Assembly: GCA_031278295.1 (NCBI GenBank)
Contig: JAITKQ010000016.1
Coordinates: 1-26,598, forward strand
Origin: Spirochaetaceae bacterium
GTDB lineage: Bacteria > Spirochaetota > Spirochaetia > Treponematales > Breznakiellaceae
DNA: 26,598 nt
Reading direction: 5' to 3'
Numbering within the stretch: position 1 is the stretch's first letter; each line of letters starts with the position of its first letter. Shown here in pieces: positions 1 to 24,612 of this stretch. The notes beneath the pieces are model-generated. The model was not told the DNA's origin, did no database searches, and saw nothing but the letters and a program-made list of their open reading frames with translations. The translations under genes were made by a program, and so were the position numbers.

Positions 1-6
1 AGTGTT

Positions 7-732
7 TTGACTAGAAGAACGATCTCTTCTAGCTAGGAGAACGATCTCTTCTAGCTAGGAGAACGATCTCTTCTAGCTAGGAGAACGATCTCTTCTAGCG
101 AGGAGATCAATCTCTTCTAGCTAGGAGATCGATCTCTTCTAGCTAGGAGATCAATCTCTACTAGCCAGGAGCGCGATCTCTTCTAGCCAGTAGCGCGATC
201 TCTTCTAGCCAGGAGCGCGGTCTCTTCCAGCCAGGAGCGCGGTCTCTTCCAGCCAGGAGCGCGGTCTCTTCTGGACGGGAGAACGATCTCTTCTGGACGG
301 GAGATCGATCTCTGCTGGACGGGAGAACGATCTCTTCTGGACGGGAGATCGATCTCTGCTGGACCGGAGATCGATCTCTGCTGGACAGCAGATCGATCTC
401 TGCTGGACGGCAGATTGATCTCTGCTGGACGGCAGATCGATCTCTGCTGGACGGCAGATTGATCTCTGCTGGACGGCAGATCGATCTCTTCTGGACGGCA
501 GATCGATCTCTTCTGGACGGCAGATCGATCTCTTCTGGACGGCAGATCGATCTCTTCTGGACGGCAGATCGATCTCTTCTGGACGGTAGATCGATCTCTT
601 CTGGACGGCAGATCGATCTCTTCTAGCTAGGAGAACGATCTCTTCTAGCTAGGAGAACGACCTCTTCTAGCCAGAAGCGCGATCTCTCCTAGCCAGGAGC
701 GCGACCTCTGCTAGCCAGGAGCGCGGTCTATT
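7..732. repeat. 22-bp tandem repeat array 1, 33 units, no indels (consensus CT(A/G)G(C/A)(T/C)(A/G)G(G/C/T)AGA(T/A)CGATCTCT(T/G))
   Basis: Units end at 28, 50, 72 ... 600, 622 ... 732 (constant period 22). Example unit 117-138 CTAGCTAGGAGATCGATCTCTT; 601-622 CTGGACGGCAGATCGATCTCTT. No unique spacers; TAG stops in CTAG-type units rule out a continuous ORF. Confidence 0.97.
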
Positions 733-842
733 CTATACTCGCGACGACTGCGAGCGGGCGGCCAGCCATAAATGGCTGGCAAATGCGGGTTTTTTCAGCG
801 CCGCGCAAGCGAAATAAATATCGCATATTTTCATATAGTGTT
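733..842. other. Unique 110-bp spacer between the two arrays with several inverted repeats and an AT-rich 3' end
   Basis: GCCAGCCA-TAAA-TGGCTGGC (761-780), CTCGC-N7-GCGAG (738-754), GCGA-AATAAATA-TCGC; ends in AGTGTT, the same sequence that precedes array 1 at 1-6. Confidence 0.8.
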
Positions 843-1040
843 TTGTACGGTAGATCGATCTCTTCTGGACGGTAGATCGATCTCTTCTGGACGGTAGATC
901 GATCTCTTCTGGACGGGAGAACGATCTCTTCTGGACGGGAGCGCGATCTCTTCTGGACGGTAGATCGATCTCTTCTGGACGGTAGATTGATCTCTTCTAG
1001 CTAGCAGATTGATCTCTGCTAGACGGTAGATTGATCTCTG
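843..1040. repeat. 22-bp tandem repeat array 2, 9 units, same family as array 1
   Basis: Units end at 864, 886, 908, 930, 952, 974, 996, 1018, 1040; mostly CTGGACGGTAGATCGATCTCTT. Confidence 0.96.
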
Positions 1041-1058: not shown

Positions 1059-1278
1059 CTCCCCGCAGGGGGATGCTGCCGCCTTTGCCCGTGCGCCGCG
1101 TCCAACAGGGACAGGCCCCGACGCGGGGCTCTGCCCCGCTTCTGGAGTTTTGCCACGCAAAACTCCACAGGTAAGGGGGCGTTGCGGGGGGCCTTGCCAC
1201 CCGCTGAGGGGGGTAGTGGAGCCGCTTGCGGCGGGAACGAGGGGGGAAGCGGGCAAACATTGTTTGCCATCCCCCCGC
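1059..1278. repeat. GC-rich multi-hairpin intergenic element (REP/BIME-like or structured RNA)
   Basis: GCCCCG-ACG-CGGGGC (1115-1129) overlapping GCGGGGC-TCT-GCCCCGC (1123-1139); TGGAGTTTTGC-CAC-GCAAAACTCCA (1143-1167); GGCAAACA-T-TGTTTGCC (1252-1268) inside an outer GGGGGGA/TCCCCCC stem. Confidence 0.55.
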
Positions 1279-1424
1279 ATTAACTTGCTGACAGGGGAAG
1301 GCTGGATAGAGAGGCTCTGGGCAACAAACGGGTCAAGGGATTTTGTTACGAGGCGCGGTAGTCTCCGTTAAGAGTGGATAGTCTTGACGGAGAAACGCGC
1401 TTCTTTCTGCCGGCTGCCGGATGG

Positions 1425-1466
1425 CGCGAAGCGGAAAGGCATCGGATGCCTTTTGTCCGCTTCGCG
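1425..1466 (-). terminator. Long hairpin immediately after the stop codon of the giant lipoprotein (terminator or 3' stabiliser)
   Basis: CGCGAAGCGGA-AAGGCATC-G-GATGCCTT-ttg-TCCGCTTCGCG, abutting the TAA at 1467-1469; no clear U-tract on the minus strand. Confidence 0.5.
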
Positions 1467-4400
1467 TTAGAAGTCGTCGTTTTTAGCGGTCTCGGTAAAA
1501 TCTGTGCCGCCGATAGTTACCGTGCCGCTGTATTTATACAGGGCGGCACTGCCATTTGTAGCGGTATTTGCGTTGGTGGTGTCGTTAATGCCGTAAACCG
1601 TGCCGTCGGTTTTGGTGAACGCACCGCCGTTAATATACACGCCGCCGCCGTTGGTGCTTGCCGTGTTCTTGCTGATGGTGCCGCCTGACATGGTGAAGTT
1701 TCCTGTCCCAATATACACCCCGCCGCCGTTGGTTGCCTCGTTATCGCTGATTTCCGCGTCGCCGCTCATGGTAAAGGTGCTACCGGTCGCGGTAAACACA
1801 CCGCCGCCTTCCTTGTATGTTCCTTCCGTGCTGTTCCCGCTGATCGTGCCGCCCGACATCGCAAATGCGCCCGCGTTATACACGCCGCCGCCCCTGTTTG
1901 CCGTGTTCCCGCCAATCGTGCCGCCTGACATGGTGAACGTGATGAGCTCGGATTTAACATACACGCCGCCGCCGTCACTGCCGCCTGCCGTGTTCCCGCT
2001 GATGGTGCCGCCTTTCATGTTGAACGTACCGCCGTCCATATGCACGCCGCCGCCATGGGCGCTGTTGTTGCTGTTGCTTGTCTCGTTCCCGCTGATGGCT
2101 GCAGTGCCGAACATAGTGAACGTGACGCTGCCGGAAACATACACGCCGCCGCCGGCGCCACATTCATTGCCGCTTATTTTTCCGCCCTTCATATCAAACC
2201 CACCTAAGACTGCGATACGCACGCCGCCGCCATTGTAGGTCGCCTTGTTCCCGCTGATCGTGCCGCCTGTCATCGTGAAATTTCCGCCGTGAAAATTCAC
2301 GCCGCCGCCGTGGGTTGCGTTGTTCCCGCTGATCGTGCCGCCGTTCATAGTGAACGCGCCGCTGCCGGAAGCAACACACACGCCGCCGCCGAAGCTGTTT
2401 CCATCATTCCCGCTGATGATGCCGCCCTTCATCGTGAAATTTCCGCCGCCCACATACACGCCGCCGCCGCCGCCAACGCTGTCGGCATTGGTGGCATTGT
2501 AGATGTTTTTGTTGTTTTGCAACGTTACGCCCGCGTTCATGGTAAGCGTTCCGCTGTTTACCATTACAAGCGCCGCCGTCGCAGTCAAGCCCTCGCCCTT
2601 GCCGCCGTCTATGACGAGGCCGTAGTTGCCGCCCCCCAGCGTGAGGCTCCCGCTTTCCACCGTGAACAGACTGCCGAAACCGCTTGCCCCGCGTGTGATT
2701 GTTCTCTCGCCGCCATCCGACACAAGGCGGATGTGTTTGCCGGAAAGCTCTACCGTTGAGGATATCGTAACGTCCGCCAGCAGTCTGACCTCTATCGGGT
2801 TGGCAGCGGTTCCGCCTGTGGCGAGGGGTATGGCCTCTTGTAATGTCGCCTTGTATATTGTTGTGTCGTCCGTCAAATCAACAGCCGCCCCCGCTTCTTT
2901 TAGTTTGCCTTCGTTGCCTTCAAGCACAATCATCTTCCCAACGCTTGTCGTGAACCGCTCTATTATGGCATCTGAAAGTGTTGCTCCAGTGGCGGCTTTC
3001 AGCACCGTTGTCCCTTCAGTCGTGACGTCCGGCGTTATCTTTGCGACAAGCCCGCTACCACCGTCCAGTCCGTCCACGGTAATCACCTTGCCTGACAAGA
3101 GGGACACATCGTTGTTCTGCTTCACGACCGCCGAGCCCGACATGGTGAAGGCCGCGGTGTTATCAACACGTACGCCGCCGCCGTTGCTGGTTGCCGTGTT
3201 CCCGCTGATGGTGCCGCCTTCCATCTTGAACGTGCCCTGAACAAACACGCCGCCGCCGGAGACGCTATCTATGTTCCCGCTGATGGTGCCGCCTTCCATC
3301 TTGAACGTGCCGGAGCCCTGATAAACGCCGCCGCCGAATTGTGCCTTGTTCCCGCTGCCTGCCGTAGCGCCGCCAATCGTGCCGCCCGTCATGGTGAATA
3401 TGCAGTTGCCGGCACTGAACACACCGCCGCCGAGGCCGCCGTCGCTTATGGCCTTGTTCCCGCTGATGGTGCCGCCTTCCATATTGAACGTGCCGCCGTA
3501 AGCATGCACGCCGCCGCCGTTTTTGATGGTTGCCTCGTTCCCGCTGATGGTTGCGCTGCCGGACATCGTGAACGTGCCGCCGTTAGCATACACGCCGCCG
3601 CCGCCGTCGTAGCCGCCGCTGCCGGTGGCTTTGTTCCCGCTGATGGTGCCGCTTGACATAGTGAACGTGCCGCCTTCCATATACACGCCGCCGCCGTTGG
3701 TGGTTGCCTCGTTCCCGCTGATTCTTGCGCTGCCTTCCATCTTGAACTCGGTGCCGCTACCGTAAACATACACGCCGCCGCCGCCTGAGCTGGTTGCCGT
3801 GTTCCCGCTGATAGCTGCGCTGCCTTCCATCGTGAACGTGCCGCTCTGAACAAACACGCCGCCGCCGGATTTTGCCGTGTTCCCGCTGTCTGCTGTAATG
3901 CCGCCAATCGTGCCGCCTGACATGGTGAACGTGCTGCCGTCGGTAACATACACGCCGCCGCCTTCGCTGTCGCCGCCTGTGGCCGTGTTCCCGCTGATGG
4001 TGCCGCTGTTCATATTGAACGTGCCGTCTTCCATATACACGCCGCCGCCGCGGGCATCTTGGCCGGAGTGTGCGGCCTTATTCTTGTTGATAGTGCCGCC
4101 GTTCATCGTGAACGCGCCTTCGTCAACATTCACGCCGCCGCCGCTTAACGCAGAGTTCCCGCTGATTTTTGCGCTGCTTGACATGGTGAACGTACCCGGG
4201 TTGACAACAAACACGCCGCCTCCGCGTATTGCCGTGTTCTTGCTGCCTGCTGTATCGCCGCCAATCGTGCCGCCTGACATGGTGAACGTTTTGGCAACAT
4301 ACACGCCGCCGCCGTCTCCTGTAGCCTCGTTCCCGCTGATAATCGCGCTGCTTGACATCGTGAACGTGCCGCCGGAAACATACACGCCGCCGCCGTTGAC

Positions 4401-6857
4401 GCTAGCCTCGTTCCCGCCAATCGTGCCGCCTGTCATCGTGAACGTGCCGCTACCGTCAAAATACACGCCGCCGCCGCTTTCTGAAGCATCGTTCCCGCTG
4501 ATGGTGCCGCCGGACATAGTGAACGCGCCATTGCTGGCAACAAACACGCCGCCGCCGTCTGTAGCATCGTTATCGCTGATAGTGCCGCCTGTCATGGTGA
4601 ACGTTTTGGCAACATACACGCCGCCGCCGTCTCCTGTTGTAGCATCGTTCCCGCTGATGGCGCCGCCTGTCATATTGAACGTGCCGCCGCCCACATACAC
4701 GCCGCCGCCGGATTGTGCCGTGTTCCCGCTGTCTGCTGTAATGCCGCCAATCGTGCCGCCTGACATGGTGAACTCGCAGCCGTCGGTAACATACACGCCG
4801 CCGCCTTCGCTGTTGCCGCCTGTGGCCGTGTTCCCGCTGATGGCGCCGCTGTTCATATTGAACGTGCCGTCTTCCATATACACGCCGCCGCCGCGGGCAT
4901 CTTGGCCGGAGTGTGTGGCCTTATTCTTGTTGATAGTGCCGCCTTGCATCGTGAACTCGCCTTCGTCAACATTCACGCCGCCGCCGCTTAACGCAGAGTT
5001 CCCGCTGATTTTTGCGCTGCCTGACATGGTGAACGTACCCTGGCCGACAACAAACACGCCGCCTCCGCGTATTGCCGTGTTCTCGCTGCCTGCTGTATCG
5101 CCGCCAATCGTGCCGCCTGTCATGGTGAACGTTTTGGCAACATACACGCCGCCGCCGTCTCCTGTAGCCTCGTTCCCGCTGATGGCGCCTCCGGACATAG
5201 TGAACGCGCCGCCGCTCACATACACGCCGCCGCCTGTACCGGAGGTGTTTTTGTTGTTTTGCAAGGTTACGCCGCTGTTCATCGTAAGCGTTCCGTCAAC
5301 CGTGATGAGCGCGCTGTCCGCGGTTATGCTTTTGCCCTTGCCGCCGTCTATCACAAGTGTGACCGAGCCGTTGCCTGCCAGCGTAAGGCTTGCGCCGCTT
5401 TCCACCGTGAACAGGCTGCCCGTCGTAAAGCTCGCGTCCCGTGTCAGTGTAATCTCCGACACACCGTAGACGGGAACAAGCAGTACGTGCCTGCTGTCGA
5501 TGTTTATCTCGTTGCCAATGGAGTGACTCTTCAACACGGTTATCTGGTCGGGAACTGGATTGCTTTCGGTAGAAGCGTCAACGGCCTCCTGCAAAGAAGC
5601 GTAGTATTTTTGATTACCGCTTACCCAGCGGGCCGCTACGACCAGCGCAAGTACGCCTTCATTTTCGGACAGCTTAAGCGCATATTTGCCGTCGGCCAAT
5701 ATAAATTTGTCGCAGTCCTCTTCTGTAAGCTGGTATGTAGCCACGACGCCCCTCAAAACAGCGCCATCCGTTTTTGTTGTGCTAATTTTTTTTACGGAAA
5801 TGTCCTCGGGCGGTGTAAGCCCGCCGCCAACTTCGATCACGGCGTCTCCCTCTAGCACGACTTCGTTTACCGATACAGGGCCCTTCACCACAAGCCTGGC
5901 GTCGGTCTTAACCGTAACCGTACCGTTTACCGTCAGATTGCCGTCCAGAGTGAGCCCCCCGCTAACGCTGATATCGCCGGTTATTTTTTTTATCGCGTCG
6001 TTATCCGTCCCCAGCCGGATAAACTTGCCTTCAGGGATTTCGACGCTTCCGCCTATGCTGAAACCGGTAACTACGGTTATATCGCTTTCGGTATCGGTAT
6101 CGTCAGGGGCGGCGGCAAGCGCCTCTTCCAGGCTGCCGTAGTATACGTCGTCCATTTTTACCACGCCCTTAGCCAGGCCGAATACGGCGTGCAGTTCTAT
6201 ATTTTTCCGGAACATTTCATCCGTGTCTTTAAAATCGGTTTTTTTGAAACTATATTTTCCGTTCTCCGCCGGGACCGGCTCTTTTTCGCCCTCTCTGCCT
6301 GAGAAAATCAGCGTACCATCTTTAAACGCATAAGAGTCGTAGGGCAGAATGATTACCTTGACAGACACCTCCTCCCCGTCAAATTGGGACTCGGCAATCA
6401 TCGAGGGCTCCGCGTACACCTTCCCTTCTTCCGAAATATACGGCTCTATCGTGTAGTATTTTTCGTCCGCTTTTAATACTGTTATCCAGAATTCGGTTTT
6501 TTTACTATCGTTCGCGTTCAGCTTTACCGTCACCGTTTTTATACCGGGGCTTTCGCCGTCGATTAAAGCGTCAACTGTGTAGTCCTTTCCCGGTGCCAGA
6601 TCGAGCAACTCGTTCAGGCTGTTCATGCCGTGTATTTCCAGCCCGTATTCGCTTGCCCAGGTTTCCGCGTTCTCCGGTATCGACTCTCCGTCGGCAAAGA
6701 TATTCTTTTTCGGGGGTGTTTTTACGAATATCGTGTGTACAAGCCTTAACTCGGCCAGCCGTTCTTCCACCACGGAAATTATAGGCTGATTCAAGACTTC
6801 ACAACCCGTGAACAGTACCAGACAAAAGAAAGGTAGCGGAAAGGCTTTTTTCAACAC
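1467..6857 (-). CDS. Giant surface lipoprotein (1796 aa) with right-handed parallel beta-helix repeats (GGGV(Y/F)xxGGTFxMxGGTISGNxA) and N-terminal Ig-like domains
   Basis: GTG start with AAGGAGGAG RBS; signal peptide ending LVLFTGC (Cys19, spirochaetal lipobox); 36 GGGV repeats counted (25 + 11 in two blocks); N-terminal segment TIFVKTPPKKNIFADGE resembles Big_3-type bacterial Ig-like domains (by eye). Confidence 0.88.
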   Translation of the reverse strand: MLKKAFPLPFFCLVLFTGCEVLNQPIISVVEERLAELRLVHTIFVKTPPKKNIFADGESIPENAETWASEYGLEIHGMNSLNELLDLAPGKDYTVDALIDGESPGIKTVTVKLNANDSKKTEFWITVLKADEKYYTIEPYISEEGKVYAEPSMIAESQFDGEEVSVKVIILPYDSYAFKDGTLIFSGREGEKEPVPAENGKYSFKKTDFKDTDEMFRKNIELHAVFGLAKGVVKMDDVYYGSLEEALAAAPDDTDTESDITVVTGFSIGGSVEIPEGKFIRLGTDNDAIKKITGDISVSGGLTLDGNLTVNGTVTVKTDARLVVKGPVSVNEVVLEGDAVIEVGGGLTPPEDISVKKISTTKTDGAVLRGVVATYQLTEEDCDKFILADGKYALKLSENEGVLALVVAARWVSGNQKYYASLQEAVDASTESNPVPDQITVLKSHSIGNEINIDSRHVLLVPVYGVSEITLTRDASFTTGSLFTVESGASLTLAGNGSVTLVIDGGKGKSITADSALITVDGTLTMNSGVTLQNNKNTSGTGGGVYVSGGAFTMSGGAISGNEATGDGGGVYVAKTFTMTGGTIGGDTAGSENTAIRGGGVFVVGQGTFTMSGSAKISGNSALSGGGVNVDEGEFTMQGGTINKNKATHSGQDARGGGVYMEDGTFNMNSGAISGNTATGGNSEGGGVYVTDGCEFTMSGGTIGGITADSGNTAQSGGGVYVGGGTFNMTGGAISGNDATTGDGGGVYVAKTFTMTGGTISDNDATDGGGVFVASNGAFTMSGGTISGNDASESGGGVYFDGSGTFTMTGGTIGGNEASVNGGGVYVSGGTFTMSSSAIISGNEATGDGGGVYVAKTFTMSGGTIGGDTAGSKNTAIRGGGVFVVNPGTFTMSSSAKISGNSALSGGGVNVDEGAFTMNGGTINKNKAAHSGQDARGGGVYMEDGTFNMNSGTISGNTATGGDSEGGGVYVTDGSTFTMSGGTIGGITADSGNTAKSGGGVFVQSGTFTMEGSAAISGNTATSSGGGGVYVYGSGTEFKMEGSARISGNEATTNGGGVYMEGGTFTMSSGTISGNKATGSGGYDGGGGVYANGGTFTMSGSATISGNEATIKNGGGVHAYGGTFNMEGGTISGNKAISDGGLGGGVFSAGNCIFTMTGGTIGGATAGSGNKAQFGGGVYQGSGTFKMEGGTISGNIDSVSGGGVFVQGTFKMEGGTISGNTATSNGGGVRVDNTAAFTMSGSAVVKQNNDVSLLSGKVITVDGLDGGSGLVAKITPDVTTEGTTVLKAATGATLSDAIIERFTTSVGKMIVLEGNEGKLKEAGAAVDLTDDTTIYKATLQEAIPLATGGTAANPIEVRLLADVTISSTVELSGKHIRLVSDGGERTITRGASGFGSLFTVESGSLTLGGGNYGLVIDGGKGEGLTATAALVMVNSGTLTMNAGVTLQNNKNIYNATNADSVGGGGGVYVGGGNFTMKGGIISGNDGNSFGGGVCVASGSGAFTMNGGTISGNNATHGGGVNFHGGNFTMTGGTISGNKATYNGGGVRIAVLGGFDMKGGKISGNECGAGGGVYVSGSVTFTMFGTAAISGNETSNSNNSAHGGGVHMDGGTFNMKGGTISGNTAGGSDGGGVYVKSELITFTMSGGTIGGNTANRGGGVYNAGAFAMSGGTISGNSTEGTYKEGGGVFTATGSTFTMSGDAEISDNEATNGGGVYIGTGNFTMSGGTISKNTASTNGGGVYINGGAFTKTDGTVYGINDTTNANTATNGSAALYKYSGTVTIGGTDFTETAKNDDF
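3854..5183. repeat. Near-identical 487-bp intragenic duplication (3854-4340 vs 4697-5183, offset 843 bp = 281 codons)
   Basis: Same offset confirmed at four anchors (3874/4717, 4051/4894, 4141/4984, 4321/5164); both copies encode ...NTAIRGGGVFVV...SGQDARGGGVYMEDGTFNMNSG...GITADSGNTA. Confidence 0.92.
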
Positions 6858-24590: not shown

Positions 24591-24612
24591 GGGGGGGGGG
24601 GGGGGGGGGGGG
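24591..24612. repeat. G22 homopolymer
   Basis: 22 consecutive G, 8 bp after repeat copy B. Confidence 0.85.

Follow-up and report, generated by a model that had tools for sequence, protein, structure and literature searches.

A 22-bp variant-repeat array at a contig end of a termite-gut spirochaete, on balance read as a young minisatellite

The contig of a termite-gut spirochaete that was analyzed here opens at its first base with an array of 42 head-to-tail 22-bp units (33 + 9), which keep a strict period and contain zero indels. On balance, and with a slight preference, we read this locus as a young, species-specific, non-coding variant-repeat minisatellite. No sequence-specific function has been demonstrated for it, and we infer both the absence of a function and the mutational mechanism. 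The array sequence is new, its kind is already known.

The window, that is, the whole stretch of DNA that was analyzed, is the entire contig C140 (26,598 bp) of a bin that comprises 201 contigs and 1.86 Mb and is 61% complete. The bin carries three FlaA genes, which marks it as that of a spirochaete. Because the array opens at contig base 1, its left neighbor lies beyond the contig end and is missing, not absent, and the description of the array as an orphan is thus not established.

Results

Architecture of the two arrays

TRF placed array 1 at 16-735 (period 22, 32.7 copies, 91% matches, 0% indels) and array 2 at 847-1045 (period 22, 9.0 copies, 89% matches, 0% indels). Together with a register table this confirmed what a sequence-only reading of the window had described, namely, 33 + 9 units with a 22-bp period and no indel in 42 units. 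The features of the locus are the following:

1-9, forward strand: probable leader end AGTGTTTTG; the identical 9-mer precedes array 2
7-732, no strand assigned: array 1, 33 x 22 bp, from TRF and the register table; first unit partial
733-842, forward strand: spacer of 110 bp (5 x 22 bp), unique sequence
761-780, forward strand: hairpin with an 8-bp stem, GCCAGCCA / TGGCTGGC, from sequence and folding
834-839, forward strand: TATAGT, a putative -10-like hexamer read from the sequence, overlapping the shared 9-mer
837-845, forward strand: leader/array junction AGTGTTTTG, shared by array 2 and array 1
843-1040, no strand assigned: array 2, 9 x 22 bp, from TRF and the register table; first unit partial

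The 9-mer at 1-9 probably represents the last bases of a leader that is truncated by the contig end. In each block the partial opening unit starts with TTG right after AGTGTTTTG. Both blocks have the same sharply defined leader/array junction, and the distal units of both decay; the final three units of array 1 are degenerate, and a strongly degenerate unit (1041-1062) directly follows array 2. The two blocks lie in a common 22-bp phase, as their starts are 843 - 7 = 836 = 38 x 22 bp apart and the spacer measures 5 x 22 bp. Such a shared phase across the spacer is expected by chance in 1 of 22 cases. Within array 1 the unit types are arranged in blocks, represented by CTAGCTAG.., CTAGCCAG..GCGC.., and CTGGACGG..

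The spacer (733-842) has no similarity to the unit, with only 5-8 of 22 matches for each of its 22-mers. It contains short hairpins and has an AT-rich right end, and as a whole it does not fold better than shuffled sequences (z -1.7). The leader 11-mer ATAGTGTTTTG was found in the genome only at position 835. On the reverse strand, an ORF of 33 codons (MKICDIYF..., window 733-834) with its ATG at 834 and its TAG at the edge of array 1 fills the spacer exactly. It is not preceded by a ribosome-binding site, and it is probably fortuitous, because frames as long as this one stay open with a probability of about 0.2 per frame.

Composition and folding of the units

The commonest unit is CTGGACGGCAGATCGATCTCTT. 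The sequence-only reading had composed the unit of two palindromes, CTAGCTAG and GAGATCGATCTC, followed by TT. Palindromes are present in some of the units, i.e., CTAGCTAG in 8 of the 40 full units, the 10-bp palindrome AGATCGATCT in 16, and the 12-bp palindrome in 4, but the complete ideal unit occurs only once among the 40. The GATCTCT core, which had been taken to be near-invariant, is intact in 32 of the 40 full units. The number of invariant columns (8 of 22) is that of a random process, as 8.3 are expected if the 21 substitution events (10 transitions and 11 transversions) are distributed at random (P(>=8) = 0.71). The blockwise variation that had been noticed in the left half of the unit is borne out by the alignment. 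The major variants are confined to columns 3-13, an 11-bp half of the unit, while columns 14-21 and 1-2 vary little; rare variants were also found at columns 14-17, 20, and 22. The conserved appearance of the right half arises because those variants that are common, and that define old unit lineages (CTAGC.AG versus CTGGACGG), occupy columns 3-13.

The expectation that the array reads almost the same on both strands was not upheld. The best identity of array 1 with its own reverse complement is 53% at any offset, and array 1 is strand-asymmetric. A long cruciform of the whole array was rejected for the same reason, i.e., a self-complementarity of just 53%. The proposed folding into hairpins stood in part. 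As single strands, the two arrays fold far better than shuffled sequences (z -5.6 and -8.0), but the pairing is not maintained by compensating changes. The palindromes can pair across units in 77.1% of the cells, compared to 76.4% in shuffled sets (124 of 500 as high), and changes at columns 9, 12, and 13 break the pairing without compensation. A selected hairpin or cruciform of the unit was discarded, as there is no covariation. Selection for palindromes or for a core was not detectable.

The tetranucleotides CTAG (25 sites) and GATC (53 sites) are enriched in the array about 64-fold and about 17-fold, respectively, compared to the rest of the genome. Among the 4-bp palindromes, CTAG is avoided most strongly in the genome as a whole (observed/expected 0.41). 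A Dam link to the GATC sites of the array was rejected, as genome-wide GATC is just mildly depleted (observed/expected 0.85) and the D12-class adenine methyltransferase encoded on contig C85 is at most a candidate for this specificity.

The indel-free spacing had been taken as a sign of constraint. Zero indels alongside at least 21 substitution states is indeed mildly low, but an ordinary explanation is at hand, as homopolymer runs in the array are never longer than 3 nt and the absence of indels is therefore unsurprising. A coding repeat was rejected, because the period is not a multiple of three, TAG occurs in every frame of the CTAG blocks, and the region 1-830 is devoid of ORFs of at least 60 amino acids.

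Turnover of the units and the repeat-rich genome

Adjacent units differ at 1.94 positions on average, in contrast to 4.81 positions when their order is shuffled (a value as low was reached in 0 of 20,000 shuffles), and the difference between units climbs steadily with their lag. Alternating two-unit blocks of 44 bp are found at 271-358 and 403-468, and along array 1 the unit types recur in the order A, B, C/D, A, B. The similarity of neighbors and the 44-bp blocks indicate slippage or unequal exchange. The array would thus grow and shrink by duplications and deletions of whole 22-bp units and of 44-bp two-unit blocks, and replication slippage or unequal recombination would be the underlying mechanism. 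At least two cassettes, each consisting of a leader ending in AGTGTTTTG and an array, would be present, and they would probably have arisen by segmental duplication and subsequently have diverged through internal turnover. A minisatellite had already been named as one alternative by the sequence-only reading, and it fits the lineage restriction, the blockwise variants, the 44-bp blocks, the degenerate distal units, and the repeat-rich genus.

The genome contains 258 tandem-repeat loci, which account for 1.9% of its bases. Large arrays are an 18-bp repeat with 123 copies (contig C36), a 21-bp repeat with 62 copies (C92), and a 19-bp repeat with 44 copies (C142); the genome's other large arrays are built on G5/C5 runs. 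The arrays at C36:10928-13110, C92:21188-22470, and C142:43-885 have units of 16-21 bp with the palindrome GGGGGCTGTCCCC as their basis, and their indel content is 5-11%. The genome is also rich in poly-G/C tracts, and tracts of 13-18 nt adjoin several arrays, e.g., those on C36, C125, C29, and C20. The large arrays elsewhere in the genome share no flanks with the 22-bp array. Congeners carry unrelated arrays with perfectly identical units, namely, a 21-bp repeat with 3.7 copies (L033 1772-1848, end of contig G005:C3) and a 19-bp repeat with 6.2 copies (L031 1-118, start of contig G001:C230). In both congeners the array lies at a contig end, and the PRTase-RNase HII block follows downstream at a distance of a few hundred bp to a few kb. 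As arrays are abundant in the genome and in congeners, the 22-bp array is one of many lineage-specific arrays in a variable region. The locus also illustrates why bins of this genus, with 1.9% of the genome in tandem repeats, break at short-period arrays.

A G22 homopolymer at window position 24591-24612 (TRF) and a G14 tract at about 19623 suggest that contingency-type hypermutable tracts exist in the genome.

Distribution of the array

Searching for the unit in the source genome and in related genomes yielded one locus in the genome and none in the relatives searched; the locus has no further copies in its own genome, and the core 10-12-mers do not occur above chance elsewhere in it. A pattern search that demanded two successive cores gave no real match in 60 relatives or in viral contigs. 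About 185,000 species genomes and the metagenome contigs gave a single match each, both of which are unrelated two-copy chance repeats. When the spacer, array 2, and the stretch downstream of it served as DNA queries, the array or the spacer was not found in 150 family genomes nor in 10 congeners, the genomes searched being mostly draft bins, in which repeats assemble poorly. The array and the spacer also had no match among plasmids or phages, and no description of such an array was found in the spirochaete literature. Judged from these comparisons, the array appears specific to one species-level lineage among the genomes searched.

Reliability of the assembly and further junctions in run X1

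The sequence is present in a single public run, a termite-gut metagenome (run X1), which is available as fragmented contigs, not reads. Words of the array and words of the flanking genes occur in this one common run, and neither occurs in two other runs of the same study. Only 36% of the sampled words of the array were recovered from the run. The region 1101-1300 is very high-copy in X1, with a summed k-mer depth of up to 32,009, and the array is therefore linked to the rest of the contig through a graph tangle. The peak value belongs to 1101-1200, compared to about 230 in unique flanks, and this interval covers only the first bases of a G-rich element (see below).

These observations bear on the reading that the array is real in the sample, but that its length, unit order, or contig linkage is partly an assembly artifact. 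Examples would be a collapse or expansion within runs of identical units, or a wrong join via the high-copy dispersed elements at 1140-1290. The terminal position of the array on one of the bin's 201 contigs, stretches of 110-132 bp in which 5-6 identical units follow each other, the low recovery of array words, the tangle, and the fact that none of the listed X1 contig pieces spans the region argue in its favor. However, most of the array can be traced along a unique path owing to its variant units, contigs with the junction have a depth similar to that of the bin's unique sequence, and the array words share their single run with the flanking genes. Taken together, such an artifact has a small probability in our view.

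Some contigs of run X1 join position 845 to array units via other first-unit sequences, with a depth of 283-387 versus 210-267 in unique flanks, and other X1 contigs share the leader only from about position 778 rightwards. This tentatively suggests that further leader-plus-array cassettes lie beyond the contig end.

The leader and a possible repeat RNA

The shared 9-mer overlaps the TATAGT hexamer (834-839), and a start about 7 nt downstream would coincide with position 846, the first array base. An AT-rich stretch lies directly upstream, and array 1 is followed by the hairpin at 761-780 and a T6 run at 790-795. Each cassette could thus be a transcription unit, in which a promoter in the leader starts a structured repeat RNA at the first array base. 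The product might serve, e.g., as a sponge for proteins or as a precursor that is processed into small RNAs, in loose analogy to ToxI or CsrB. The polarity, which resembles that of a leader-proximal array, the strong predicted folding of the single strands, the further leader-array junctions in run X1, and the presence of a GGA in every unit, within AGGAG or TGGAC, are consistent with this reading. However, we regard it as unlikely. An acceptable -35 element does not accompany the hexamer, and a promoter scan did not report the site. The T6 run lies 9 nt beyond the stem, so that the hairpin is not a canonical intrinsic terminator; a terminator scan reported neither the hairpin nor the T6 run, and array 2 has no terminator behind it. 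Rfam 15 returned only microRNA models, with 23-30 bits compared to gathering scores of 62-130, and known RNA families were consequently rejected, as none reaches its gathering score. Furthermore, no toxin-like or Pfam-recognizable ORF is found downstream, the unit hairpin has no compensating changes, the searches yielded no relatives for a covariation analysis, and the sequence was found in no RNA run.

In an extended version, copies of a conserved leader of about 68 bp (about 778-845) would each drive, with the start placed precisely at the leader/array junction, a polar array of 22-nt units into a long and strongly self-pairing RNA, forming a multi-cassette locus. We assign to this version an even lower probability than to transcription of the cassettes as such. 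If true, it would be a spacer-less, leader-driven repeat-RNA locus without a described counterpart in spirochaetes, acting as a protein sponge or as a small-RNA precursor.

Genomic context and a possible protein-binding platform

To the right of the array lie chromosomal housekeeping genes, which encode RNase HII, a Clp ATPase, and MoeA. The larger genes on this side that were scanned contain housekeeping Pfam families or none, and no rep gene was seen among them. Four ORFs (1045-1371, 1374-1688, and, on the reverse strand, 831-1280 and 997-1260) match no Pfam family at E<=0.1. The GC skew tracks gene orientation and is uninformative about an origin at a contig end.

The gene that adjoins the array encodes a repeat-rich lipoprotein of 1796 amino acids (window 1467-6857, reverse strand) without a Pfam family, and paralogues are present on contigs C31, C190, C179, and C12. 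Congeners share synteny over the PRTase-RNase HII block on the right. In the six congeners examined, the lipoprotein gene was not found upstream of this block, and it therefore belongs to a variable region.

An alternative to the minisatellite is that a sequence-specific DNA-binding protein, whose gene would lie past the contig end, uses the array as its cis-acting platform. The array could then be a centromere of the sopC type, an iteron-like array for control or handcuffing, or a nucleoid-organizing site, whereby the conserved half-unit would be bound once per 22 bp. The strict indel-free period with a phase that is kept over the spacer, and the concentration of major variants in one 11-bp half (columns 3-13) with little variation in the other, agree with this possibility. 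The usual copy numbers of iterons are far below 33, and the at least 33 copies present here thus speak against an iteron-like role. The nearest DnaA-box-like site with at most one mismatch was found at 3160, there being none within 3 kb, and the sole AT-rich tract by the repeats is about 35 bp long (810-845). An iteron-type origin, which would have DnaA boxes and an AT-rich element for unwinding next to its repeats, is not supported by these results. A platform of any kind seems improbable to us, because a cognate gene is not in view on the contig, the context consists of chromosomal housekeeping genes, the 10-bp palindrome is intact in fewer than half of the units and not restored by compensation, there are just as many invariant columns as chance would produce, the core 10-12-mers show no enrichment elsewhere in the genome, and nothing similar exists in the relatives, plasmids, or phages searched. 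The phased protein-binding platform that the sequence-only reading had preferred thus gains no support from conservation, core, palindromes, DnaA boxes, or dispersed motifs. Its proposal of decoy sites was also abandoned, as dispersed single core motifs occur at or below chance in the genome. Contiguous direct repeats with an embedded inverted repeat do have functional precedents, e.g., sopC of the F plasmid with 12 x 43 bp (PMC3177203).

Other elements beside the array

A G-rich structured element of about 90 nt is located at window 1172-1290. It is composed of the stems GCGGGGGGC/CCCCCGC and GAGGGGGGA/TCCCCCC, and the central hairpin between them varies with compensating changes; in the window, the last loop of the element contains an additional, inserted hairpin. 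A DNA query that contained this element gave matches in 83 of the 151 family genomes, which belong to 45 of 66 genera, and among the matches listed most fall on the element, often in several copies. It had no match in Rfam; it may represent a REP-like element or a small RNA that has not been described. In other genomes this dispersed element is not associated with arrays. A further hairpin, TGGAGTTTTGC / GCAAAACTCCA at window 1141-1168, recurs in many family genomes.

A stretch of 120 bp is 90% identical between window 1313-1428 and C31:2323-2442, each copy being downstream of a paralogous beta-helix lipoprotein gene. The copy on C31 lies between the lipoprotein gene and a convergent ORF that, judged by eye, resembles a sigma-54-type activator.

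Discussion

The observations that do not sit easily with a minisatellite deserve to be stated. The sharp, identical junction in combination with decay of only the distal units represents a polarity that is unusual for a neutral array, and the common 22-bp phase across the spacer also argues against neutrality. The additional leader-array junctions in run X1 suggest a multi-cassette locus that could be functional. In addition, the number of indels is mildly low, and the left flank, the site of any cognate gene, lies beyond the contig end. The minisatellite reading accounts neither for the shared junction nor for the polarity or the phase that is kept. If the cassettes were transcribed or bound by a protein, they would represent a repeat-based element of a new type; the evidence at hand does not call for this assumption.

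Comparison with known systems

CRISPR loci and the array have in common a leader on one side, a degenerate distal repeat, and several arrays with one leader. However, the units of the array abut without spacers and can be aligned in all 22 columns, and its "variable" half-units differ from each other by point mutations, so that a CRISPR array was rejected.

The ToxI antitoxins of type III toxin-antitoxin systems are tandem 36-nt repeats that are transcribed upstream of toxN and are present in 2-6 copies. The order of a promoter-like leader, a tandem array, and a hairpin with a T-run is reminiscent of ToxI, but the array has units of 22 nt, 33 copies instead of 2-6, and no conserved unit structure. 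A type III antitoxin array is not supported, since no ToxN/AbiQ-type toxin gene is found directly downstream, the four ORFs being without a Pfam family.

Plasmid iterons are direct repeats of 17-22 bp that are bound by Rep initiators. The array resembles them in its 22-bp unit, the direct orientation of the repeats, and the AT-rich stretch alongside, and differs from them by tens of copies instead of a handful and by the lack of a rep gene among the genes seen, of a nearby DnaA box, and of a plasmid context.

Among functional platforms, sopC of the F plasmid is the closest formal analogue. It consists of 12 direct repeats of 43 bp that each contain an inverted repeat of 16 bp bound by SopB (PMC3177203). 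Contiguous spacerless direct repeats, a short palindrome in each of them, and a strict period are shared features. In contrast to sopC, the palindrome of the array is intact in a minority of the units and sopA/sopB-like genes are not in view; furthermore, the context of the array is chromosomal, and it has no similarity to any plasmid record. A sopC/ParB-type centromere is not supported, because it would have an intact inverted repeat in every unit, compared to 16 (10 bp) or 4 (12 bp) of the 40 units of the array.

The bacterial non-coding VNTRs or minisatellites of the MLVA kind have the most in common with the array. The shared features are head-to-tail non-coding units of 10-100 bp, blockwise variants, lineage restriction, degenerate edge units, and a probable growth by slippage or unequal exchange. 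Differences are the unusual length of the array, with at least 42 units and probably more past the contig end, and its division into cassettes, each of which opens at an identical leader junction. Copy-number polymorphism is the defining property of VNTRs. Of the further characteristics, the array has a head-to-tail non-coding unit, neighbors that are more alike than distant units, and no occurrence in the relatives searched. If it is a neutral minisatellite, it would provide a hypervariable marker for one termite-gut spirochaete population.
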